From IMG/VR virus record IMGVR_UViG_2534681675_000024: a DNA stretch of 16,949 nt; one strand, given 5' to 3'. This stretch comes from a virus (taxonomy: Duplodnaviria; Heunggongvirae; Uroviricota; Caudoviricetes). The translations under genes were made by a program, and so were the position numbers. The stretch's first letter is position 1. Every line of letters begins with the position of its first letter. A model generated the notes under the pieces. The model saw only the letters and a list, made by a program, of their open reading frames with translations, was not told where the DNA came from and searched no databases. This document shows positions 3,049 through 14,192 of this stretch, one piece after another.

Positions 3049-3882
3049 ATGAACATCGAAAAAAGCAGATTAATTTCTGAGGCCGCCCCTCATCTGAACG
3101 CCTCTCTGGGCACAATTAACGGTAATGAATTTGCCGCAATTGTCCCGGTTATTCCTGGTCATATCGGTGGGCGTGAAACCAATATTGTTAGCGCAAAAGC
3201 GTTACACAAAGCGTTGGGCGTGGGAAAAGACTTCTCTACATGGATCACTGATCGCATCTCTGAATATGACTTCACCATTGGGCACGATTACTCAGTCCAT
3301 AAAACAATTTCCCCAAATTTGGGGAAAAGCCCGAATGGCGCGGCTTACAGCAAGATTAAGCACTCTGGCAGACCCGGCAAAGACTATCTGTTAAGTGTCG
3401 GAATGGCGAAAGAACTGGCAATGATCGAACGCAATGATCAGGGTCGCGCTATCCGTCGTTATTTCATCCAGTGCGAGGAAGAATTACAGCGTACCGTGCC
3501 TGAAATCGCCGCCCGCTATCGTCGCCAGCTAAAAGCCCGTATCAGTGCCGCAAACAACTTTAAGCCAATGTGCGATGCGCTGAACATGGCCCGTGCCGAG
3601 CAGGGGAAAACGACGCAGCAACACCACTACACAAACGAGAGCAATATGATTTCTCGTATCGTTCTTGGTGGGCTAACTGCTAAGCAGTGGGCGCGGATAA
3701 ATGGCTATTCTGGCGAACCTCGCGACCATATGAACGCAGAACAGCTTGAACACCTCTCATATCTCGAAAGCACCAATATCACGTTAATTGATATGGGCAT
3801 GGAATATGAGCAGCGCAAAGGAGAACTCACCCGCCTGTCGCAACGCTGGCTCGCCAAGCGTCTGGAGGCGGTCCATGTTTAA
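3049..3882 (+). CDS. Phage antirepressor-like protein (AntA/AntB-type N-terminal domain, Rha/KilAC-like C-terminal region)
   Basis: 277-aa ORF with GGAG about 8 nt upstream. The N-terminal segment SAKALHKALGVGKDFSTWITDRISEYDFTIGHDY matches the AntA-type antirepressor signature. The central segment YLLSVGMAKELAMIERNDQGRAIRRYFIQCEE resembles KilAC/Rha-type regulatory domains. Confidence 0.78.
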   Translation: MNIEKSRLISEAAPHLNASLGTINGNEFAAIVPVIPGHIGGRETNIVSAKALHKALGVGKDFSTWITDRISEYDFTIGHDYSVHKTISPNLGKSPNGAAYSKIKHSGRPGKDYLLSVGMAKELAMIERNDQGRAIRRYFIQCEEELQRTVPEIAARYRRQLKARISAANNFKPMCDALNMARAEQGKTTQQHHYTNESNMISRIVLGGLTAKQWARINGYSGEPRDHMNAEQLEHLSYLESTNITLIDMGMEYEQRKGELTRLSQRWLAKRLEAVHV

Positions 3883-4054
3883 GCCGACAGGAACACCACA
3901 ACCACAAAAACGCTACAAAGATGCCCACGGAGCACTCGTTACTGTCGAAAGCGTGTCTCACAACCGAGTGACGTTTTATCGCGACGGGTATCAATCGCCA
4001 TGCGTACAACCGCTGGCGCGTTTCATGAAGGAGTTCGCGGAGGTTAACCAATGA
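3875..4054 (+). CDS. Small hypothetical protein (59 aa)
   Basis: ATG at 3875 overlaps the antirepressor stop (ATGTTTAA), and its own stop overlaps the ATG at 4051. No domain recognised. Confidence 0.45.
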   Translation: MFKPTGTPQPQKRYKDAHGALVTVESVSHNRVTFYRDGYQSPCVQPLARFMKEFAEVNQ

Positions 4055-5082
4055 TACCCGTCCAGAAGAAGACATTTTCACTGGCTGGTATGTCTCCAAA
4101 ATCCAGCAATATGACGGCAAAGTCAGGCATTAATACAGCAGATACAAGCAAAGTTTATCATTTGCTGGTGGTCGGAACGGATGCCTTAACCATGCCAGAA
4201 ATCTCGGGCGATGATATTAGCGTTGAGAAGGTCAGCGGCTGCGCCAGAGAATTTCTGGTCGTAGATGACCTGTTCTGCTCGCGTAGTGACTCCACAAAAA
4301 TCTTCGTCCACGCGCGTGACGTTAACGAAATGAGCGCGATGTACTGTGCTTCTGGTGCTTCCAATAGCGAGTTTTCGGAGTCCATAAAAAAGAGCTTGCC
4401 GTTATGCGGCAACACGGTTTATGGTTATAAGGCACCTCATAAAACGGGTGCCGGGATTGGCCTCCCGCTGGAGTTATCGGCGATACATGACGCGCCAGCG
4501 TCTTTTTTTGTATCGGCGCACACGCACACCTTATCAATGGTGGGCTGTATGGGGCTACCTTCGGGTAGGCTGGTTTCCGATAACGCCAGTAAGGCCAACT
4601 CCGTACAGTCCACCGCCAGCAAGATTGGTCTCTTCTGCGGTGGTTATAACAAGCCAACGTTATCGGAGGATGCCACATGCTGGCTACTACCCCTACCCAA
4701 AAACCGCAATTTATCTGGATTATCGCCGCAGTTCGCCGCGATTGCCCGACAATTACCGCCAAAATTCATCATATTGCTGCCGAGTCTGAACGCGATGCTC
4801 GCCGTTCTCTGGTGCGCGATCACGTCTGCTTTTTTGCTGGTCGTATCCGCATGGAGGTGGCACATGATTAAAACCTACGATGTGCATATGGACCCCCTCG
4901 AACGCACAAGCCAGATCATCACACTGACAGAAGTGATTAATGACATTCTGGTGAGCAACTCTCCCTCACGAGACGAAAAACTGAAGGCGTTACTCGCGAT
5001 ATTGGATCTCGCCGTTCGTGACGTTCATTTCCTGCTGGAAGGTGGCGAAATGCCAGTAAAACGGGGGGCAACCAATGAATAA
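4051..5082 (+). CDS. Uncertain long ORF (343 codons); possibly several short genes or a partly non-coding leader
   Basis: The frame is open for 343 codons and has a good SD (GGAGG, 7 nt before ATG 4051). However, the first ~270 residues are unusually Ser/Cys/Trp-rich, the frame contains a terminator-like hairpin plus T7 run (4489-4509), and two internal starts have strong SDs: 4677 in another frame (GGAGGA) and 4864 in-frame (GGAGGTGG). Confidence 0.35.
4489..4509 (+). terminator. Terminator-like hairpin (GACGC-GCCA-GCGTC) followed by T7
   Basis: A 5-bp GC stem with a 4-nt loop is followed immediately by TTTTTTT. The stem is short, so function is uncertain. It lies inside the dubious 4051-5082 ORF. 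Confidence 0.3.
4864..5082 (+). CDS. Small hypothetical protein (72 aa), alternative in-frame start within the 4051-5082 ORF
   Basis: A strong SD (GGAGGTGG, 4853-4860) sits 3 nt before ATG 4864. The downstream sequence has ordinary helical-protein composition, and its stop overlaps the next start (ATGAATAA at 5075). Confidence 0.4.
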   Translation: MIKTYDVHMDPLERTSQIITLTEVINDILVSNSPSRDEKLKALLAILDLAVRDVHFLLEGGEMPVKRGATNE

Positions 5083-5269
5083 CTCAATTAATACCCCTCG
5101 CCTTACGTCCGCACTTCAATTAATCGAGCAAGCAGCGGCTGTCCTGGTTGCTGTCAGTCTTTCGGCTGAAGAAATGGACGCTACTGATGTCGTGGATGCG
5201 ATTAAAGCGTGCTCATCTTTGGTTAACGATGCCCGTGCAGAGCTGGTAATTCTTGGGGGTGAAAAATGA
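5075..5269 (+). CDS. Small hypothetical protein (64 aa)
   Basis: G-rich SD-like stretch upstream. Overlaps the upstream stop and the downstream start (ATGA at 5266). Ala/Leu-rich helical composition. Confidence 0.55.
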   Translation: MNNSINTPRLTSALQLIEQAAAVLVAVSLSAEEMDATDVVDAIKACSSLVNDARAELVILGGEK

Positions 5270-5529
5270 ATATCAACTTAATTTATCGTCATCCGTGTGA
5301 GCTGGAAATTGAATCATTGCTGAGCCGTGAAGAGCCATATCCAGACACATTCACTCTTGCAGATCGCACGACTGAACGGCTTACCAGAGCGCGCACAGGT
5401 CTGGTTCATGTGATGAATGAGATTCTTCCATCGGTGGGAGGGGAACAGGCGACAGTAATCACTAGCTGGCTACAAAAAGTTACCTCTCTGATAGATATCA
5501 GTTTAATCGATGCGGAGAGTGCGAAATGA
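5266..5529 (+). CDS. Small hypothetical protein (87 aa)
   Basis: SD GGGGGTGA before ATG 5266; ATGA overlaps at both ends (translational coupling). Confidence 0.6.
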   Translation: MNINLIYRHPCELEIESLLSREEPYPDTFTLADRTTERLTRARTGLVHVMNEILPSVGGEQATVITSWLQKVTSLIDISLIDAESAK

Positions 5530-5747
5530 CCAACATCCAGCTCATCGAAGCGCAATGTCGCATCGAACAGGTTCAGACTGTTTTAGGGTTCTGGCTTGAA
5601 GGGGCCAGCCCCAGCAACAGAGACAAGTTAATGATTGGCGCGGTTATGTCACTGCTCAATGGCGTACCAGAAGCTATTCAGGAAGCGGACGAATTGTTGG
5701 GCAAATATGAGTTACAGAATCATTCAGGCGAGGCGAAACATGAATAA
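5526..5747 (+). CDS. Small hypothetical protein (73 aa)
   Basis: Coupled to its neighbours at both ends (ATGA overlap upstream, ATGAATAA overlap downstream). N-terminus (MTNIQLIEAQ) resembles that of the 5075 ORF ([20 protein letters not shown]), suggesting possible paralogy. Confidence 0.6.
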   Translation: MTNIQLIEAQCRIEQVQTVLGFWLEGASPSNRDKLMIGAVMSLLNGVPEAIQEADELLGKYELQNHSGEAKHE

Positions 5748-6342
5748 TTTCTTAACATTCCATGCAGAAGCAACGCCTGACGGCGTAAACATCATGCACC
5801 GCAGCAACGATGGCATGACAGAACGCGTTGAGACCGTCTCATATATTGATGCCGTAAATCGTCTGGATGCCGGGGATTATGACGATAAACCAGATGAAGG
5901 CATGTTTATACATCTCGCTATTGCCAGTGGCGGCAACCAGGGATATTTCGATTACACATCACAGCATCACGTGATTATGTGGCGCTGGCTGATAGCAACA
6001 GCATTCATCAATGAAATGAGAAAGGAAAACGGCACCGTCAGCATTATTGATGACAGTGGCAATCATTCCGTGGTTTCTGTTTATTCCAATGGCATCGTCG
6101 CCATGCCGCTGTATCCAGTAGCAGAGCGCCTCGCTATGGCAAACAACATTGAGGGCGCAATGATCGAGAAATATGGTGTTGATGTCGGAACAAAGAATGC
6201 CATCATTTTTTACAGCAACATGTTCGATGTCGAACAGGGAGCACTCACTTCGTTTGGGCGAGAAGTGCTTGCCGATCTTCACAACAGCTTTATTGCCGAA
6301 CTAAACGAAAACGGCATCCCAGAAGCACCAGTGACGCACTAA
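5740..6342 (+). CDS. Hypothetical protein (200 aa), immediately upstream of the primase
   Basis: ATG 5740 overlaps the upstream stop (ATGAATAA). The ORF track's longer 5635 start is probably an over-extension. No domain recognised. Confidence 0.65.
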   Translation: MNNFLTFHAEATPDGVNIMHRSNDGMTERVETVSYIDAVNRLDAGDYDDKPDEGMFIHLAIASGGNQGYFDYTSQHHVIMWRWLIATAFINEMRKENGTVSIIDDSGNHSVVSVYSNGIVAMPLYPVAERLAMANNIEGAMIEKYGVDVGTKNAIIFYSNMFDVEQGALTSFGREVLADLHNSFIAELNENGIPEAPVTH

Positions 6343-6354
6343 ACGGGGGCCAGA

Positions 6355-8706
6355 ATGCGAAACATTGATCTTATCCGTCAGGTTATCAGTGCGTCTGAAA
6401 ACAACTGGCCTCATGTGCTGGGCTGTCTGAACATAAATGTCCCTGACTCTCCGCGCCGTCATGCTCCCTGCCCTGCATGTGGGGGCAAAGATCGATTCCG
6501 GTTCGACGACAACGGGCGCGGTAGCTTCATCTGTAATCAGTGCGGCGCTGGTGATGGGCTGGATTTAATTAAACGCGTAAATAACTGCGACACAACAGAG
6601 GCGGCGCTTCTTGCCGCTGATGTTCTGGGTATTGATTACCGGACAACGGAAACACCAGAAGCCACCAGCCAGAAACGGGAACAACTGGAAACCGAGCGCC
6701 AGCGACGCGAACAGGAGCGCCTGAAAAGGGCAGAGAAGGACGAACAACAAAGACGGGATACGTTTTCCCGTCAGTTTGATGACATGCGCAGAAAGGCTGT
6801 AAACGGCAAATCTGATTATCTGGTTGCGAAAGGGGTAGGTGATTTTACATTCCCCGTGTTGCCAGATGGATCTCTGTTGCTGGCGCTGGTGGATAAATCC
6901 GGCGCAGTCACAGCAGCACAGACTATTACCTCACATGGTGAAAAAAGACTCCTGACAGGTTCAGCAAAGCGGGGGGCGTATCACGCCATAAACGCACAGA
7001 AACGACCTCACAGCATCATAATTGCTGAGGGTGTGGCTACCGCCCTGTCGTGCCATTTAATTCGCCCTGACGCAATGACAGTGGCAGCAATCGACGCTGG
7101 CAACCTGTTGCCAGTAGCGGAAGTCATGCGCAGAACATATCCACAGGCACAAATCATCATTGCCGCAGATAACGATCACCAGCAAGGAAACTCCGAAAGT
7201 GGAGGGATCAACACGGGGAAAGATGCCGCAGAGAGGGCCGCTATTTCCGTAGCTGGCTGGGTGTCTCTGCCACCGACTGACTATAAAGCCGACTGGAACG
7301 ACTATCACCAACAACACGGGCTGGCGGCAGCCACAGCAGCATTTAAAGATTCGATGTACCAGCCACGGGGGAAAGGGGCGCAGGTGAAAAATCACAAACA
7401 GTCAGTCGGGGCGCTTAATGAGATCAGTTCTGGCGAGGTGTTAAGCGATGATGAAATTGCTGTCCTCAAAGAAATCAACCGGACGTTTACGCATGTCACC
7501 ATCGGCGGGAAACACAAGGTGGTGTCGCTAAAGCCTTCTCAAACCGGCGGTGTATCGCACGTTTTCGAGGATTTATCACAATTTCAGCATTATTTTCATC
7601 ATAAACCGAGAGTCGCCAGAAAGCTGGCGGGATCGGCGTGGCTGTCATGGAGTGGGAAGAACTACAAGCCAGGAGGCGTAGGATTTTATCCAGTACCAGA
7701 CAAATGCCCTGACGATGTTTTTAATCTGTATGAGGGGCTGGCACTGGAACCAATTGAAGGAGATTGCACGGTATACCTTAATCACCTGTTGCAGGTTGTC
7801 TGTGCCGGTAATGAAGAGGCATACCAATATCTTATCCAGTGGATGGCGCACATTATCCAAAAGCCTGATGAAAAACCGTCCGTGGCAATCGTGATGAAAT
7901 CTGTCCCGGGCACAGGGAAAGGCACAACGGTTAAACCGCTGCTGCAAATACTGGGGCAGTACGCCGCCCACATTAACGGGGCGGGACATATTTCAGGGCG
8001 CTTCAATTCAATACTTGCTAACAAGCTACTGGTATTTGCTGACGAAGTGACGATCCACAAGCCGTCTGAAGCTGACAGACTTAAAGCGATTATTAGCGAA
8101 CCGACGTTTAACCTTGAGCGCAAGGGAATTGATGCTGAACCAATGCCGAATTTTGCCCGGTTGATATTTGCCAGTAACAGCACACAGGTATTACAGGCGG
8201 GGATAAGAGAGCGCCGCTATCTCGTGCTTGAGCCATCTCCTGAAAAAGCACAGAGCCGGGAGTATTTTGATCGGCTGTACAGTTGGCTTAATGATGGCGG
8301 TGCCGCAAAGTTGCTTTGGCATCTTAAAGGGGTGGATCTCTCAGGTTTTGACCCTCAACGAGCGCCACAGACCGATGCCTTACGTGAAGAAATCTTGCTG
8401 GGGCTGTCTGGCGTTGAATTGTTTCTTTATGGCGAGCTAATCAATGAACCTCCGTTTAATGGCGAAGTCCGTTTGTTTGCAAAGGATATGGTTAGTCGAT
8501 TTGTAGCGTGGTCGCTTGAGCGTGGGGAAAAGCTTAAAGAGCCAGCAGCCAGATCACTACTGGGTAAATCACTTGCACAAATGGGGCTGGTGAAGCATGG
8601 AAGACCAGACCGAGGGAATGGCGTGTTCTACGAACTACCAGAGGTCGGAGTTCTACAGGCTGCGTTTGCCCGTCTGATCGGTATGGGGGGTTATGATGTT
8701 TTTTAA
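6355..8706 (+). CDS. Replicative primase-helicase (zinc-finger + Toprim primase domain, C-terminal P-loop NTPase; P4 alpha / D5-like)
   Basis: 783-aa ORF with a G-rich SD. It has an N-terminal zinc-binding pair (CPACGG ... CNQCG), a Toprim-like acidic core (IIIAEGVATALS and AADNDHQQGN), and a C-terminal Walker A-like loop (VPGTGKGTT) with a Walker B-like hhhhDE (LLVFADEV). Size is close to P4 alpha. Confidence 0.9.
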   Translation: MRNIDLIRQVISASENNWPHVLGCLNINVPDSPRRHAPCPACGGKDRFRFDDNGRGSFICNQCGAGDGLDLIKRVNNCDTTEAALLAADVLGIDYRTTETPEATSQKREQLETERQRREQERLKRAEKDEQQRRDTFSRQFDDMRRKAVNGKSDYLVAKGVGDFTFPVLPDGSLLLALVDKSGAVTAAQTITSHGEKRLLTGSAKRGAYHAINAQKRPHSIIIAEGVATALSCHLIRPDAMTVAAIDAGNLLPVAEVMRRTYPQAQIIIAADNDHQQGNSESGGINTGKDAAERAAISVAGWVSLPPTDYKADWNDYHQQHGLAAATAAFKDSMYQPRGKGAQVKNHKQSVGALNEISSGEVLSDDEIAVLKEINRTFTHVTIGGKHKVVSLKPSQTGGVSHVFEDLSQFQHYFHHKPRVARKLAGSAWLSWSGKNYKPGGVGFYPVPDKCPDDVFNLYEGLALEPIEGDCTVYLNHLLQVVCAGNEEAYQYLIQWMAHIIQKPDEKPSVAIVMKSVPGTGKGTTVKPLLQILGQYAAHINGAGHISGRFNSILANKLLVFADEVTIHKPSEADRLKAIISEPTFNLERKGIDAEPMPNFARLIFASNSTQVLQAGIRERRYLVLEPSPEKAQSREYFDRLYSWLNDGGAAKLLWHLKGVDLSGFDPQRAPQTDALREEILLGLSGVELFLYGELINEPPFNGEVRLFAKDMVSRFVAWSLERGEKLKEPAARSLLGKSLAQMGLVKHGRPDRGNGVFYELPEVGVLQAAFARLIGMGGYDVF

Positions 8707-8730
8707 TATAGTCTTTTTACAAGAAGATCG

Positions 8731-8840
8731 TTTTTACCTGTACCACCTATACCACTTTGCTAATTCAGTATTAAAAACAGTGCGTTATAGTGGTACAGGT
8801 CAATATCTTACCTATACCAGACCTGTACCACCTATACCAT
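8731..8840. repeat. Iteron-like repeat cluster 1, immediately 3' of the primase-helicase gene (candidate ori)
   Basis: CCTGTACCACCTATACCA occurs at 8737-8754 and 8822-8839. An inverted copy TGGTACAGGT lies at 8791-8800 and an extra CCTATACCA at 8811-8819. The same core family recurs in cluster 2. Confidence 0.6.
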
Positions 8841-8882
8841 TAACAAACGCATTTCTTCTGGCTGGCTGAGAGGAAACAACCA

Positions 8883-9113
8883 ATGATGAGCACACCATTT
8901 TACAAAGTGCGCCAGTTAGCTTCTTCCTCTGGCTGGCAGCTGCGGTTTGAGGGGCGTTCAGACTGGCTACCCATTGCGGCATGGGCGAATGTTGAAATGT
9001 GTATTGACGGCGATACCGTTGAAATCATTATTCCCTGCGTGGCAAGTCGGGACGGCTGTATAGAGCCAACAGATATGGCAGCAGAAATCAGAGAGGTAAA
9101 ACATGAACAATAA
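8883..9113 (+). CDS. Small hypothetical protein (76 aa)
   Basis: SD GAGAGGA upstream of ATG 8883; its stop overlaps the next gene's start. No domain recognised. Confidence 0.6.
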   Translation: MMSTPFYKVRQLASSSGWQLRFEGRSDWLPIAAWANVEMCIDGDTVEIIIPCVASRDGCIEPTDMAAEIREVKHEQ

Positions 9114-9840
9114 CTATTGCATACCGCAGGGAATGACCAGAACGGAGCGCGAAGAATTAAAAAGTTTCGCTACACAGTGCGGGAATGCTGGCGACATCCA
9201 AAGTCTGGAACGCACTTTAATTATGATTGCGCACTGGATGCGTCAGGGGCAAAGGGTTTCATTTACTGAATATGCCAGCCAGTGGACAGAGGCACAGCGC
9301 GAACGGAGCGACGGTAATCACTCAACACCCGAAATGGCGAAGCAATGGCCTTTCAGTGGTAAACGCTGTATCAGTCCCGGTGGTTCAGATTATTACCCTG
9401 CTGGTGTGGGAGATGAGCCATGTTGTGACGAGACTGAAATCCGCCACGCAGTGACAGTAATTACCGCTGAATACCCACAATTTAACCTTGACGGACTGGC
9501 GCTCCACAACCGGAATGCGGACTGGGAAAACCCGCTTGATAACCCGTCATTTATCGTATCGGCGAAAAGCTGCCTGAGATGGATCAGAGACAACGGGATG
9601 AGTAATGCCCAGATTGAGAGCTTCCCGCAGGATAACCCCACATCTGACACGTTGAAGCATGAAGTGGAGCGATATAACCAGATAAACCACCAGCACAGTG
9701 ATCACCCGCACTATATCCCCAACGGAGCATTTATTGCGGCGATGGTGGCAAGCGGCTACAAGGTTAAGCCAGCGGGAAGAATGAACGCATTTTTCAATAT
9801 TTCAAAAAAGGGATTATGTGCTGCTATGGGTAAAAATTAA
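9103..9840 (+). CDS. Hypothetical protein (245 aa)
   Basis: SD GAGAGG before ATG 9103, coupled to the upstream gene. Protein-like composition, no recognisable domain. Confidence 0.7.
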   Translation: MNNNYCIPQGMTRTEREELKSFATQCGNAGDIQSLERTLIMIAHWMRQGQRVSFTEYASQWTEAQRERSDGNHSTPEMAKQWPFSGKRCISPGGSDYYPAGVGDEPCCDETEIRHAVTVITAEYPQFNLDGLALHNRNADWENPLDNPSFIVSAKSCLRWIRDNGMSNAQIESFPQDNPTSDTLKHEVERYNQINHQHSDHPHYIPNGAFIAAMVASGYKVKPAGRMNAFFNISKKGLCAAMGKN

Positions 9841-9845
9841 ATAAA

Positions 9846-9949
9846 TGGTACAGGTCTGTACAGGTGGGGAGAGGTCATTTTTACCCACCTGTACCACCTA
9901 CAGGCCGCGTCACACAAGGGTTTGTGACATGGTGGTACAGGTGGTACAG
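9846..9949. repeat. Iteron-like repeat cluster 2 (same family as cluster 1) plus a GTCACA-N8-TGTGAC palindrome
   Basis: TGGTACAGGT at 9846-9855, CTGTACAGGTGG at 9856-9867, ACCTGTACCACCTA at 9887-9900, and tandem inverted GGTGGTACAGGTGGTACAG at 9931-9949. A palindrome GTCACACAAGGGTTTGTGAC lies at 9909-9928. TTTTTACC precedes the repeat in both clusters. Confidence 0.6.
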
Positions 9950-10314
9950 CAAAAACAGCGATTTTCTTTATAAGGTATGTTTTGCTCATCTGGCAGGCGG
10001 AGGTATTCGCTGCGGTTTGGCACATAGCCCAGAACAGCAAAGAGTTTTACGAGACTTTTGTAAAATCCAGTGTACAAGGGCGTGACGTTTTTGAAGGAGA
10101 GACCTACGAAATTTTCGTAGTTCAAAAAATAGCCTCTGAGATGTTGTTATGCCTGTTCAGCAAACCATCCGCATAGCTGATCGCGAATCAAATTACCAAT
10201 GGAGCCAGAAGCAAGGGCAGAACTGGAAAGCGCCTGCCGTGAAGAGTAATGCGACATCGTAAATATAGTTTTTAGAGTCCATAAAAAACCTGTCAAAACC
10301 TGACATACAGAACG

Positions 10315-10347
10315 ATGCCACCAGCTACTGAGCGGTGGCATTTTTTT
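10315..10347 (+). terminator. Rho-independent terminator
   Basis: An 8-bp stem (ATGCCACC / GGTGGCAT) with an 11-nt loop is followed by TTTTTTT. Confidence 0.7.
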
Positions 10348-10391
10348 GTGCTATTTGTTTCATATTTTGCAATCACAATGATGAATGTTGC

Positions 10392-10433
10392 GTTTTATGA
10401 AACTATAATGACTGTTGTTTTATACAGTTATAA
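10392..10433 (+). promoter_or_regulatory. Candidate promoter/operator for the 10443-14192 operon
   Basis: Two imperfect 17-bp direct repeats (GTTTTATGAAACTATAA at 10392-10408 and GTTTTATACAGTTATAA at 10417-10433) overlap a TATAAT hexamer at 10404-10409. No good -35 is seen. Confidence 0.3.
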
Positions 10434-10442
10434 GGGGGCGTT

Positions 10443-10616
10443 ATGGCTATTTCAGTAAAGCCAGTATTGATAAGTGAGAAGCAAATGGAAGCGATAAAGA
10501 AAATTCAGGAGGAGCAGCGTAAAAAATCAGAGGTAGGAGTTGCGCCAACGATCCACGAAATTGCTCGGGGATTAATGGATAAGGCGCTGGCTTACACTTT
10601 AACTGGACGTGGGTAA
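10443..10616 (+). CDS. Small hypothetical protein (57 aa), first gene of a three-gene operon
   Basis: Not in the supplied ORF track (below its length threshold). ATG 10443 is preceded by a strong SD (AAGGGGG). The stop at 10614-10616 lies 4 nt before the next ATG (10621). Helical composition; a regulatory role is only a guess. Confidence 0.5.
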
Positions 10617-10620
10617 ATTT

Positions 10621-12087
10621 ATGGCTACTTGGCAACAAGGAATCAACTCAGGCGGTTTTCTGGCTGGCATCGGTACGCAAAATGAGAATGCGCCAAAGGC
10701 AAGCGACATTAACGCAACGCTTGGTCTGATCCGCGAAAACAATGAACTGGCTCGCTCAGGTGCAAATAACGTTGGTCTGACCGCGTTACGTGGTCTGGCT
10801 GGAGTTGCTGATATTTATAAGCAGGAACAGCAACAGAAAGCGATTAATGCGTTCAATAAGGTTCACGCTGATGCATGGGCTTCTGGTGATCCATCGGGAC
10901 TATTTAAGTTTGCCCAGGAAAATCCAGCGTTTGTTGCACAGGTACAACAGGCGTTTTCTGGTCTTAATGATCAGCAACGCAACGATATGGGCGATTTAGC
11001 CATGAGGGCTAACGTCGCTCTTTCTCAGGGACCGGAAGCCTACAGTAAATTCATTACTGACAACAAGGACAGGTTAAATCGCGTTGGTGCTAATGCTGAC
11101 TGGATGATTCAGACAGGTATCCAGAATCCAGAGCAGCTATCACACATGCTGACTACTATGTCTCTCGGTGCGCTTGGACCAGAAAAGGCGTTTGCTGTTC
11201 AGGATAAGATGGTTGGTCGTGAGATTGACCGAGGCCAGCTGGCAGAGACAATCCGCAGCAATAAGGCTGGAGAGGCACTTCAGGCGAGAGGGCAGGATAT
11301 TAGCCGAGCAAATGCGTTAACGTCAGCATATGCACCAACAGCCGCAATGCAGAATTACAATCAGTACGCGCAAATGTTAAAGGCGGACCCAGAGGGGGCG
11401 GCGGCATTTGCGGCAGCGGCTGGAATTAATACAAACGCCAAAAAATTAATGAGTGTTAGAGAAAACGATGATGGCACTGTCACAAAATACTACACAGACG
11501 GAAGTGAAGAGCAGGGAAAACTAAACCAGCCAATATCTGGAGATGGGTTTCGTCCAATAGCTTTGCCAACAGCCCAAAAGATCATGGAAAAGTCGCCAGA
11601 AGGGGCTAAAAAAGCTGCTGGATTTGCATACAGGGTTAGGGATGCTCTTGATTCAATAGATACACTGAAAGACCAGCTTAGCCCACAGCGAGTGGCGATC
11701 ATTAATAATGCTTTGGGTAATGGGACGCTGGCTAACTTAACGCTCAGCCCAGCAGAGCAGCAATACGTTGTTAATGCTAATGACGCAATAATGGCAATAC
11801 TCCGTCAGGAAACAGGGGCATCTATCCTACCAGCTGAAATGTCCAAATATTATCAAATGTATTTCCCTCAGCCTGGTGATTCCACAAAAACCATTGATAC
11901 CAAGCGCCGGAAGATGGAAAACCAGTTCAATTCGCTGAAAGCTGCTTCTGGTCGAGCTTATGATGCTTTGCGGGTTATTTCAGCAGTTGACAGAGGAACT
12001 TCTTCTTCGTCGCAGACATTGCCGCAATCTGAGCAGGTATCACAGCCAGCAGCCAGCAGTAATTTTTCTTCACTATGGGGTGATTAA
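10621..12087 (+). CDS. Large hypothetical protein (488 aa), Cys-free, Ala/Gln/Asn/Gly-rich, predicted mostly alpha-helical
   Basis: ATG 10621 chosen over the track's 10609. No Cys, few aromatics, Q/A-rich low-complexity stretches, and no enzymatic motif I can identify. Its stop overlaps the next start (TAATG). Confidence 0.8.
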
Positions 12088-14192
12088 TGGCTAAAGCATG
12101 GAAAGATGTTATCGCTTCTCCACAGTATCAGGCGTTAGCACCAGAACAAAAAGCGCAGGCTCAGGAGCAATACTTCAATGAAGTCGTGGCCCCGCAAGCC
12201 GGAGAAAGTGTAGAGCAGGCTAAGCAGGCTTTTTATGCTGCCTATCCACTACCATCAACGAATGAAATAAACCGATCCCAATCAGCAACTCAAAATATTC
12301 AACATACATCATCTGATAATTCTCTTGCGTCAGGGTATGCAAAGTTAGCTACTCAGCAAAGAGAGGGGCTTGAGCGTTCAGCAGAACAGGGAGCCAGTCT
12401 TGGGGCTGCGATGCGCGATGCTATAACAGGCGAAAGCCGAATGACTCCAGAGATGGAGAGACTGCAAAATGTCGACCTTGCCCCAGAGTTAACCTCACTC
12501 AGCATGGATGCTCTAAAAGCTCGATGGTCTCAACTTTTCGGCTCTGACGCATCTCAGGAAAAGATTCTTCAGAGCATGGGAGCGAAATTAAGGCAGGATG
12601 AGAAGGGTAACACTATCGTTTCCCTGCCATCCGGTGATTATGCTCTGAACAAGCCGGGTTTATCGCCGCAAGACGTGGCATCGTTTCTGGCTAATGCGCT
12701 GGCGTTTACACCAGCGGGCAGGGCTGGAACGGTGCTTGGTGCCATAGGAAAATCAGCAGCTACAGATTTAGCACTACAGGGAGCCACCAGCCTTGCTGGT
12801 GGAGAAGATATTGATCCGTTACAAACGGTAATTTCTGCTGGCATTGGTGGTATTGGTAAGGGGCTGGAAAATACAGCGAGTGCGGTTTCGAGGGCTGTTC
12901 GTGGTGATATGTCGCCTGAAGCAAAGGCTGCTGTCGACTTTGCATCGGAAAGAAATCTGCCGTTAATGACCAGTGACATGCTGAAAGATAAAACCTTTAT
13001 GCAGAGTCAGGCTCAGACATTAGGCGAAAGAGTTCCTTTTTTTGGAACCGGTAAGAATCGGCTGAATCAACAACAAGCACGAGAAAATTTAGTCAGAACA
13101 TTTAGCGATGGTCTGGGGGGAATTTCAGATAAACAGCTTTATGAGTCTGCGACTAAAGGGCAGCAAAAATTCATTGAGGCAGCAGGAAAGCGATATAACC
13201 GCATAATTGACGCTATGGGGGATACCCCTGTCGATCTCTCAAACACGGTAAAAACTATCGACAATCAGATTGCCGTGTTAAGCCGCCCTGGCAAATCTCA
13301 GGATAGAGCCGCGGTAAAAGTCTTGCAGCAATTTAAAGACGATATCACCAGCGGACCAAATGACCTGCGTCTGGCGAGGGAAAACAGAACCGATCTTCGA
13401 AAGCGATTTATAGCGTCATCTGACACTGTTGATAAAGATACGCTCCAGAAAGCCAGCGATATTATCTACAAGGCATATACGGCGGATATGAAAAAAGCCG
13501 TAGCCAAAAATCTTGGAGCAGACGAAGCCATTAATATGGCAAGGGTTGATCGCTCATGGTCTAAATTCAATGACATGATGGGAAGAACGCGCGTTCAAAA
13601 GGCAATAGCCAGCGGCAAGGCCACGCCTGAGGATGTAACAAAACTCGTTTTTAGCCAAAGCCCATCAGAACGTTCTCAGCTTTACAGGCTTCTGGATGAC
13701 AATGGTAGGCAAAACGCACGAGCAGCTATAGTTCAGAATGCTGTAGATAAGGCGACTGATCCGTCTGGAAATATCAGTGTTGAGAAGTTTATTAATGCGT
13801 TACACCGGAACAGGAAGCAATCAGCAACTTTCTTTAAAGGCGTACATGGAAAGGAACTGGACGGCGTTATTAAATACCTCAACGATACAAGACACGCGGC
13901 AAAAGCGAACGTTCAAAACTTAAATGGTCAGCAGCTTTATGGATTGTTAGTTGGTGGTGGCATCATAAACGCAGCAGTATTAGCGGGGATGCTAAAAACG
14001 GCTGCGTTTGTTGTTCCTGCTGCTGGTGCCGTAGGCGGAGCAGCGAAGGCATACGAAAGCCCTGTTATACGAAATGCCTTGTTACGTCTGGCAAATACGC
14101 CAAAAGGTAGCACAGCATATGACAGAGCGATCAGTACGGTCACACAATCGCTCACCAGAGTCGCACAGGCATCACAAAAAGAATCTCAATAA
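12087..14192 (+). CDS. Large hypothetical protein (701 aa), Cys-free, helical, with a C-terminal Gly/Ala-rich hydrophobic hairpin
   Basis: Long uninterrupted ORF coupled to the upstream gene. The segment LYGLLVGGGIINAAVLAGMLKTAAFVVPAAGAVGGAAKAY (about nt 13934-14056) looks like a membrane-insertion hairpin. GIGKG and GAIGKS do not fit true Walker A spacing. Confidence 0.85.
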   Translation: MAKAWKDVIASPQYQALAPEQKAQAQEQYFNEVVAPQAGESVEQAKQAFYAAYPLPSTNEINRSQSATQNIQHTSSDNSLASGYAKLATQQREGLERSAEQGASLGAAMRDAITGESRMTPEMERLQNVDLAPELTSLSMDALKARWSQLFGSDASQEKILQSMGAKLRQDEKGNTIVSLPSGDYALNKPGLSPQDVASFLANALAFTPAGRAGTVLGAIGKSAATDLALQGATSLAGGEDIDPLQTVISAGIGGIGKGLENTASAVSRAVRGDMSPEAKAAVDFASERNLPLMTSDMLKDKTFMQSQAQTLGERVPFFGTGKNRLNQQQARENLVRTFSDGLGGISDKQLYESATKGQQKFIEAAGKRYNRIIDAMGDTPVDLSNTVKTIDNQIAVLSRPGKSQDRAAVKVLQQFKDDITSGPNDLRLARENRTDLRKRFIASSDTVDKDTLQKASDIIYKAYTADMKKAVAKNLGADEAINMARVDRSWSKFNDMMGRTRVQKAIASGKATPEDVTKLVFSQSPSERSQLYRLLDDNGRQNARAAIVQNAVDKATDPSGNISVEKFINALHRNRKQSATFFKGVHGKELDGVIKYLNDTRHAAKANVQNLNGQQLYGLLVGGGIINAAVLAGMLKTAAFVVPAAGAVGGAAKAYESPVIRNALLRLANTPKGSTAYDRAISTVTQSLTRVAQASQKESQ

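Follow-up and report, generated by a model that had tools for sequence, protein, structure and literature searches.

We analyzed a stretch of 16,949 nucleotides (IMG/VR record IMGVR_UViG_2534681675_000024), hereafter called the window in its whole length, in which a primase-helicase gene is followed by two clusters of short repeats, or iterons, with two genes between them. The primase-helicase, Rep, is a 783-amino-acid protein encoded at 6355 to 8706 on the plus strand, and it comprises a Zn-ribbon, a Toprim domain, and a DUF5906 superfamily 3 (SF3) helicase. From approximately residue 680 to residue 783, its C terminus is predicted to form a winged-helix domain. Cluster 1 (8736 to 8838) starts 30 bp past the Rep stop at 8706. 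Cluster 2 (9847 to 9951) starts 7 bp past the stop, at 9840, of the second of the two intervening genes. Both of these lie on the plus strand; the first, taken from the open reading frame (ORF) list, encodes a 76-amino-acid (aa) protein with no assigned function (8883 to 9113), and the second encodes a 245-aa protein with a predicted C-terminal winged helix (9103 to 9840). The window is an integrated phage satellite of Escherichia coli, namely, an EcCIMP1-like phage-inducible chromosomal island (PICI) with a P4-type RNA immunity module.

The repeat unit is 9 bp long, ACCTRTACC, and it is present in direct and inverted copies with a tandem spacing of 9 to 11 bp. The 8-mer CCTGTACC has six exact copies in the 16.9 kb, all within 8737 to 8829 and 9847 to 9941, where 0.15 would be expected; none of 200 shuffled sequences reached six. 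Allowing up to one mismatch, ACCTRTACC gave 12 matches, 10 of which fall in the two clusters (3.3 expected, with 0 of 200 shuffles reaching 12). The 14-mer ACCTGTACCACCTA, allowing up to three mismatches, gave nine, all but one of them in the clusters (0.73 expected). An earlier reading made from the letters of the window (the sequence-only reading) had described one iteron family in direct and inverted orientation, clustered after the primase-helicase stop and again after the 245-aa gene, and copy counts far above chance bear this out. It had also placed TTTTTACC ahead of each cluster. This element was found upstream of a forward iteron pair in both, and its T-run is kept in relatives for cluster 2 only. 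Neither the rest of the window nor the complete element of a 99.9% identical E. coli genome holds a third iteron cluster. The window contains no DnaA boxes, and a consensus scan of positions 8600 to 10700 for promoters and terminators showed none at either cluster. A gapped iteron pattern scanned against viral_contigs returned about 120 chance matches, the known element standing alone among the true ones.

Cluster 1 opens with a left iteron pair on the plus strand, ACCTGTACC ACCTATACC, in tandem at 9 bp (8736 to 8753), that is conserved in six relatives. An AT-rich spacer of 38 bp follows (8754 to 8791; GC fraction of 0.33 to 0.35 over 40-bp windows), delimited by composition and alignment. 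To its right are an inverted iteron on the minus strand (8792 to 8800), which reads GGTACAGGT on the plus strand, and a plus-strand triplet (8810 to 8838) consisting of ACCTATACC, ACCTGTACC, and ACCTATACC at 8810, 8821, and 8830. By analogy with the layout of PICI origins (PMC6092414), the spacer is a candidate DNA-unwinding element. Cluster 2 opens with an inverted pair on the minus strand (9847 to 9865), made up of GGTACAGGT at 9847 to 9855 and TGTACAGGT at 9857 to 9865. The T-run kept in relatives (9875 to 9881) comes next, ahead of a plus-strand forward iteron ACCTGTACC and a degenerate copy of it, ACCTACAGG (together 9887 to 9904). The cluster 2 spacer is 29 bp long (9905 to 9933) and GC-rich. 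Taken by itself, the local hairpin that it contains, GTCACA-N8-TGTGAC, does not reach significance. The spacer leads to a right inverted pair on the minus strand, GGTACAGGT and GGTACAGCA (9934 to 9951). The right pair forms a 14-bp perfect inverted repeat with positions 9885 to 9898. The idea of a small conserved palindrome in the corresponding spacer of each relative was rejected, as it was not significant in a shuffling test (p = 0.04 to 0.6). The GC fraction runs from 0.23 to 0.40 across cluster 1 and from 0.45 to 0.58 across the core of cluster 2. The two cores align with one another as direct repeats of approximately 100 bp and are alike in architecture.

Conservation was examined by aligning the intergenic regions across genera whose Rep proteins are 64 to 72% identical to that of the window, with six sequences available for cluster 1 and four for cluster 2. 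In cluster 1, 40 of 54 iteron columns (74%) are invariant versus 22 of 122 other columns (18%; p = 1.5e-12). The corresponding figures for cluster 2 are 33 of 45 (73%) and 27 of 115 (23%; p = 1.3e-8). These alignments support the view that both clusters are under purifying selection. Short segments of the spacers are retained as well. AAAAACA (8773 to 8779) in the cluster 1 spacer is invariant across five relatives. CCGCG (9905 to 9909) in the cluster 2 spacer is kept in four of five elements, those of the window, Raoultella (L152), Buttiauxella (L002), and Citrobacter (L162), and the fifth, from Salmonella (L160), has CCTTG.

For a broader view, we compared loci with genes for relatives of Rep or of the 245-aa protein. 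In essentially every one that has an intact Rep, about 30 in all, an iteron array begins approximately 25 to 30 bp past the Rep stop. The grammar of the array is constant, with 9-bp tandem copies in opposite orientations around a spacer of about 40 to 50 bp. The iteron sequence itself differs by Rep type, the other types being TGAACCAAC, ACGGGTTA, GAGACAAC, ATCCCTAC, CGGTCACA, TGGGATAA, CTAACCCA, GGCGGATA, and ACCGACAA. The Rep proteins of L004 and L030 have primase domains (residues 1 to 340) that are 87 to 88% identical to that of the window, no homology to it in the C-terminal domain, and the iteron TGAACCAAC. The Raoultella Rep is only 49% identical in the primase domain and 87% identical in the C-terminal domain, and its iteron is that of the window. 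A CTGTACC iteron is likewise found with the Salmonella (60% primase domain and 71% C-terminal domain identity), Buttiauxella (63% and 54%), Citrobacter (39% and 48%), and Xenorhabdus (L158; 47% and 46%) proteins. The Arsenophonus Rep (L161; 43% and 46%) is accompanied by a one-base variant, CCTGTACA, and that of L163 (40% in both domains) by CTAACCCA.

Across these loci, the iteron type is seen to co-vary with the helicase/C-terminal half of Rep and not with the primase domain or the neighboring genes, and the mosaicism of Rep is, as far as such comparisons reach, a natural domain-swap experiment. The five genes upstream of the L030 Rep are 86 to 100% identical to those of the window, yet the iteron is different. 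Conversely, the Citrobacter element shares the iteron but has no other gene of the window within 4 kb on each side, the 76-aa and 245-aa genes included. No gene but Rep tracks the iteron type among the loci compared. The iterons are therefore most likely read by the satellite's own Rep, through its C-terminal winged-helix domain. That the C terminus is a winged helix comes from a predicted structure. A sequence search of the PDB with Rep matched the NrS-1 primase helicase core alone and not the P4 origin-binding domain, and a homologue search with the C-terminal fragment of Rep by itself returned fragments only.

It was also observed that the primase domain (6355 to 7374, residues 1 to 340) and the helicase/DNA-binding half (7375 to 8706) of Rep have separate histories. 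Primase domains 87 to 88% identical to that of the window are fused to DUF927 helicases, and C-terminal halves of the window type occur with primase domains that are 39 to 49% identical. Such separate histories imply a recombination joint near residue 340.

The relationship between the two clusters is clearest in the Citrobacter freundii locus, a P4-like element with a Rep 49% identical to that of the window. Here, the window-type iterons form one contiguous array of approximately 230 bp. When cluster 1 and cluster 2 are concatenated, in the window and in the Salmonella, Raoultella, and Buttiauxella elements, they are collinear with the Citrobacter array from end to end. The block of cluster 2 is CTACAGGCCGCG in the window and in Citrobacter alike, and the junction between the clusters of the window maps to 10 to 15 bp between the two halves of the Citrobacter array. 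Because the clusters are collinear with one contiguous region, they are best described as two halves of one composite origin and not as two separate elements. We consider it likely from these alignments that cluster 1, with its AT-rich spacer, is half A and cluster 2, with its GC-rich spacer, is half B of a single satellite replication origin that is split by two genes over 1.1 kb. The sequence-only reading had proposed a bipartite replication locus. A replication locus remains the favored interpretation, given that one iteron family lies at the position of satellite origins, tracks the C-terminal half of Rep, and is conserved in both clusters. Its division into two separate elements was not upheld, the clusters being collinear with the contiguous Citrobacter origin.

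The 76-aa and 245-aa genes lie between the halves in the window and in the Salmonella, Raoultella, and Buttiauxella elements. In L159, which has a Rep of the DUF927 type, a homologue of the 245-aa gene has a complete module of another iteron, ACCGACAA, on each side. The bracketing of this gene with another Rep and another iteron indicates that the flanking clusters change together with Rep and that the split layout is recurrent. In the Xenorhabdus locus, a small gene lies between the iteron sets and is followed by a gene for a 260-aa protein.

Several points weigh against a split origin of this kind. Half B is missing from L155, in which Rep, cluster 1, and both genes are intact, and from a decaying locus of Pantoea stewartii (L003); the L155 case means that half B is not indispensable. 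The spacer of half B is GC-rich, and half B may for that reason have a negative effect on initiation or no part in it. The alignments were anchored on the iterons, which may inflate the contrast in invariant columns, although the pattern is still plain by eye. The direction of change may have been either the insertion of genes between the halves or a deletion in the Citrobacter element. Finally, both the binding of Rep to the iterons and the role in replication are deduced from comparison only. The Pantoea locus (5405 to 5900 of L003) is a decaying copy in which Rep is cut to its C-terminal 468 codons and the 245-aa gene is deleted except for about 10 codons. Next to a terminator there, CCACCTGATACC may be what is left of half B.

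The strongest competing explanation is that cluster 1 alone constitutes the origin, cluster 2 being a nonfunctional leftover of a duplicated or recombined origin module that has happened to survive downstream of the 245-aa gene. The intact L155 locus without cluster 2, the many relatives with a single module of about 115 bp (for example, L030 and L004), and the GC-rich rather than AT-rich spacer would all fit such a history. A relic would not, however, be expected to keep 73% of its iteron columns invariant against 23% of the neighboring columns across four genera. Nor would it be expected to persist, with most of its CTACAGGCCGCG block, at 49% Rep identity in Citrobacter, where half B abuts half A, or to have a counterpart in L159, where a second module with a different iteron also flanks the homologous gene. 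We consider a leftover unlikely on these grounds.

Extra iterons limit initiation in iteron plasmids by handcuffing. Cluster 2 could similarly exert negative control by handcuffing or titrating Rep together with cluster 1, or a loop between the two clusters could couple expression of the enclosed genes to Rep occupancy. The same iterons at a distance, the lack of an AT-rich spacer in half B, and an enclosed 245-aa gene that is conserved, origin adjacent, and predicted to encode a winged-helix domain would be consistent with this, as would the emergence of the split layout with two unrelated Rep/iteron types. Sequence cannot separate positive from negative action. Halves A and B are contiguous in Citrobacter, where a loop is impossible, and the consensus scan placed no promoter-like site across either cluster. 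Negative control appears a little less probable again than a leftover module.

It is improbable that the repeats are operators through which the 76-aa or the 245-aa protein regulates those genes, with no part in replication. The 76-aa gene does co-occur with CTGTACC iterons in the window, L002, L003, L152, L155, L158, and L160, and the 245-aa protein has a predicted winged helix. Against this, neither gene is present in Citrobacter, which has the same iterons, or in Arsenophonus, which has CCTGTACA. Homologues of the 245-aa protein in which the segment YIPNGAFIAAMVASGY is largely conserved adjoin at least six unrelated iterons, and iteron arrays at the same position are general for Rep genes that lack both the 76-aa and the 245-aa genes. 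Least credible of all, to the point of being negligible, is a cluster 2 that acts as an RNA or DNA hairpin, such as a terminator after the 245-aa gene, with its likeness to cluster 1 being secondary; the 14-bp perfect inverted repeat with its inner hairpin does give fold z scores of -3.07 for DNA and -3.32 for RNA, but no U-tract follows the stem, the terminator scan was negative there, the arms of the stem consist of the very iterons of cluster 1, the inner palindromes do not reach significance (p = 0.04 to 0.6), and the structure persists in Citrobacter, where it is preceded by no gene and a separate terminator serves rep.

The reading that we prefer, a composite origin in two halves, suggests how the parts might act. 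Half A (8736 to 8838) would be the probable site of melting and helicase loading, with melting presumably taking place at its spacer. Half B (9847 to 9951) may serve as a second Rep-binding module of the composite origin. With a two-gene cassette lying between the halves, bound Rep would have to loop the DNA, and Rep at A and Rep at B would thus communicate by looping out 1.1 kb.

The replication module appears to be exchangeable as a unit. Its right-hand boundary is at 10041 to 10095 on the plus strand, a segment that shows 94% identity with the backbone of 329 E. coli genomes carrying other Reps and iterons. In L030, a single 115-bp TGAACCAAC module leads directly into the backbone that begins at 10041. 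The backbone shared with elements having other Reps, together with the L030 junction, defines the exchangeable unit as the C-terminal half of Rep, half A, the two genes, and half B. The 55-bp noncoding boundary segment and its flank (10041 to 10119) also carry the palindromic 15-mers TACGAGACTTTTGTA (10048) and TACGAAATTTTCGTA (10105), for which 0.01 would be expected, and the Salmonella locus has five copies of TACGAAAA. These are probably an operator set for the downstream operon.

The two genes between the halves differ in their distribution. The 76-aa protein has no Pfam, PHROG, or NCBIfam match. Its homologues occur only with a Rep of the window type, in the window and the six loci listed above, and they are absent from the Citrobacter and Arsenophonus loci despite the CTGTAC-type iterons there. 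The 245-aa protein belongs to a family of 29 proteins, all from Enterobacterales, that corresponds to no Pfam, PHROG, or NCBIfam family. Its members, compared in the window and in loci L031 and L152 to L160, always adjoin a satellite origin, as the first or second gene after it, together with DUF5906, DUF927, or AAA_25 initiators. The usual place of the gene is past the whole array (L031, L153, L154, L156, and L157), and it is often followed by genes for SSB, ProQ/FinO, and PerC. An AlphaFold2 model of the 245-aa protein (mean predicted local distance difference test score of 88.5) has at its end a winged helix that weakly matches RFX, Cdc6, and the P4 origin-binding domain. Homologues that are 55 to 69% identical adjoin at least six unrelated iteron sequences, while the putative recognition segment, YIPNGAFIAAMVASGY, is largely conserved in the family, with seven invariant positions between 205 and 219. 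One might suppose that the gene for the 245-aa winged-helix protein, alone or together with the 76-aa gene, is embedded between Rep-bound halves for a reason, such that a Rep loop couples origin firing to an accessory factor that is independent of the initiator type. This we regard as doubtful. If true, it would mean that a previously unrecognized accessory factor is common to many enterobacterial satellites and that its embedding arose with at least two unrelated initiator/iteron types.

A further motif, TCTGGCNGGC, is found on the plus strand at 8857, 8928, 9989, and 10659, which makes four copies where 0.12 would be expected; two of the four are within coding sequence. The copies at 8857 and 9989 stand just past each iteron cluster and are followed by purine-rich GAGAGG/GGAGG. 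The motif precedes the first post-iteron gene in the Buttiauxella, Raoultella, Xenorhabdus, and L159 loci and is also present in L030; it may represent a conserved leader or an element of the ribosome-binding-site region. That a segmental duplication had recently carried along the 5' end of the 76-aa gene was considered and rejected, since TCTGGCNGGC with GAGAGG also follows iterons in elements that lack the 76-aa gene.

The closest precedent for this locus is the pri-rep-ori module of E. coli PICIs (PMC6092414). In EcCICFT073, two iteron sets flank an AT-rich region immediately 3' of pri-rep, and a plasmid maintenance assay has shown that this origin supports replication (PMC6092414). The window resembles the Gram-negative PICI module (Fillol-Salom et al. 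2018, PMC6092414), and the Staphylococcus aureus pathogenicity island (SaPI) ori that it mirrors, in having the origin immediately 3' of the initiator gene. The resemblance extends to the order of an iteron pair (8736 to 8753), an AT-rich spacer with a GC fraction of about 0.33, and further iterons (8792 to 8838), and to an iteron sequence that is specific to the initiator. The genetic context, with int, AlpA/HTH, pri-rep, and PerC genes transcribed rightward, is likewise similar. Unlike the PICI origin, however, the window has a second module of its origin at a distance of 1.1 kb, beyond two intervening genes and with a GC-rich spacer. Its Rep is also a fused Zn-ribbon/Toprim/DUF5906 protein.

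The alpha protein of satellite P4 loops DNA between ori and the cis replication region (crr) and has a C-terminal winged-helix DNA-binding domain. According to the annotation of the P4 genome (NC_001609), the iterons immediately 3' of alpha are crr, which consists of two adjacent 120-bp repeats with 9-bp tandem iteron pairs, and ori is 4.5 kb away, upstream of the operon. The window is like P4 in several respects: a fused primase-helicase with a C-terminal winged helix (predicted in the case of the window), octamer or nonamer iterons in both orientations, some of them paired in tandem at 9 bp, an iteron region that adjoins the 3' end of rep and is built from two units of about 100 to 120 bp, two iteron-bearing regions per replicon, and C4/isrK immunity RNA in the element. 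It differs in that homology between Rep and alpha is limited to the primase domain, with 33% identity over 335 amino acids, the helicase and DNA-binding parts being nonhomologous in sequence. Moreover, the type I iteron of P4 is TGTTCACC and not ACCTRTACC, and the window has only two modules, both 3' of rep and 1.1 kb apart, with no distal ori. As judged by initiator homology, iteron sequence, and geometry, the window does not belong to the P4 system. The sequence-only reading had mapped the two clusters to an ori plus a distant crr and had carried properties of alpha over to Rep. Neither is supported, the first in view of the position of the P4 crr, with ori 4.5 kb off and no third cluster in the window, and the second in view of a resemblance that is confined to the primase domain. 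It is plausible, by analogy, that the window works like P4, with an initiator bound to two distant iteron regions and the DNA between them looped.

Looping and handcuffing mediated by an initiator between distant iteron sites also occur in the iteron plasmids R6K, with its gamma and alpha/beta origins, and P1, with incA and incC. The window shares with these plasmids identical repeats, putatively bound by the initiator, that are approximately 1 kb apart on one replicon. The plasmid initiators, however, are of the Rep_3, pi, or RepA type and are unrelated to an SF3 primase-helicase, and looping in the window is hypothetical.

The wider element accords with a satellite. The window is 99.9% identical to an E. 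coli chromosomal island sited between yicC and dinD, and all genes of the element are oriented rightward. From the annotation of that E. coli locus and Pfam scans, the element, all on the plus strand, encodes a tyrosine integrase, a helix-turn-helix (HTH) regulator, and an AntA antirepressor, followed by an Ash protein gene that is overlapped by the isrK and C4 antisense-RNA genes, an Icd-like gene, and several small ORFs. Downstream of Rep are the 76-aa and 245-aa genes, genes for P22 gp20/gp16-like ejection proteins, and PerC. The features of a PICI are present, comprising int, an AlpA-type regulator, pri-rep, unidirectional genes, and PerC, and the element lacks a full set of virion genes. 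A blastn search of the region against deposited phage genomes gave no match.

Within the long ash ORF (4051 to 5082), Rfam matches were obtained to isrK (4432 to 4508; 64 bits) and C4 antisense RNA (4533 to 4620; 77 bits). This plus-strand segment (4432 to 4620), upstream of the Icd-like gene, provides a PICI-like element with an RNA immunity module of the P4/P1 type. At 10609 to 14192 on the plus strand are genes for homologues of the P22 injectosome proteins gp20 and gp16 (Pfam Inj_translocase, E = 3.6e-118; PHROG DNA transfer protein). A satellite with these genes and no capsid or terminase genes fits the EcCIMP1-like PICIs that use P22-like helpers. EcCIMP1 itself, an E. coli PICI mobilized by the P22-like phage Kapi1 (Pick et al. 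2025, PMC11773190), likewise has an integrase, an antirepressor, Ash, a DNA primase, DNA transfer proteins, and PerC. The integration sites differ, being proA/yagU for EcCIMP1 and yicC/dinD for the element of the window, and the two are likened by gene repertoire. An origin or iterons are not described in the EcCIMP1 paper (PMC11773190). In the best-matching genome, E. coli HNSQ2209 (L001), an annotated IS66-family element (tnpA, tnpB, and tnpC; 3166 to 5754) sits between an integrase-proximal hypothetical gene and the HTH regulator, and by coordinate offset, it is apparently absent from the window.

A search of 5,426 complete E. coli genomes found the satellite lineage represented by the window in approximately 130 of them, and the lineage has relatives in several other enterobacterial genera; it has been uncharacterized so far. 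The origin is of a known type, its split layout being the one unusual feature, which makes this a modest variant and not a new mechanism; the known picture of how such origins work is unchanged. What the comparison provides is the location of the probable origin of the lineage and of its specificity determinant. It further indicates that the Rep C-terminal half and the iterons move together as one unit when satellites exchange replication modules, with the primase domain recombining independently, and it draws attention to the 245-aa family as a conserved neighbor of the origin. Nature has supplied variants in which the halves are contiguous (Citrobacter), are 1.1 kb apart (the window, Salmonella, Raoultella, and Buttiauxella), or are reduced by the loss of half B (L155). 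Such variants would allow a direct test of the action of origin halves at a distance, as with ori and crr of P4.

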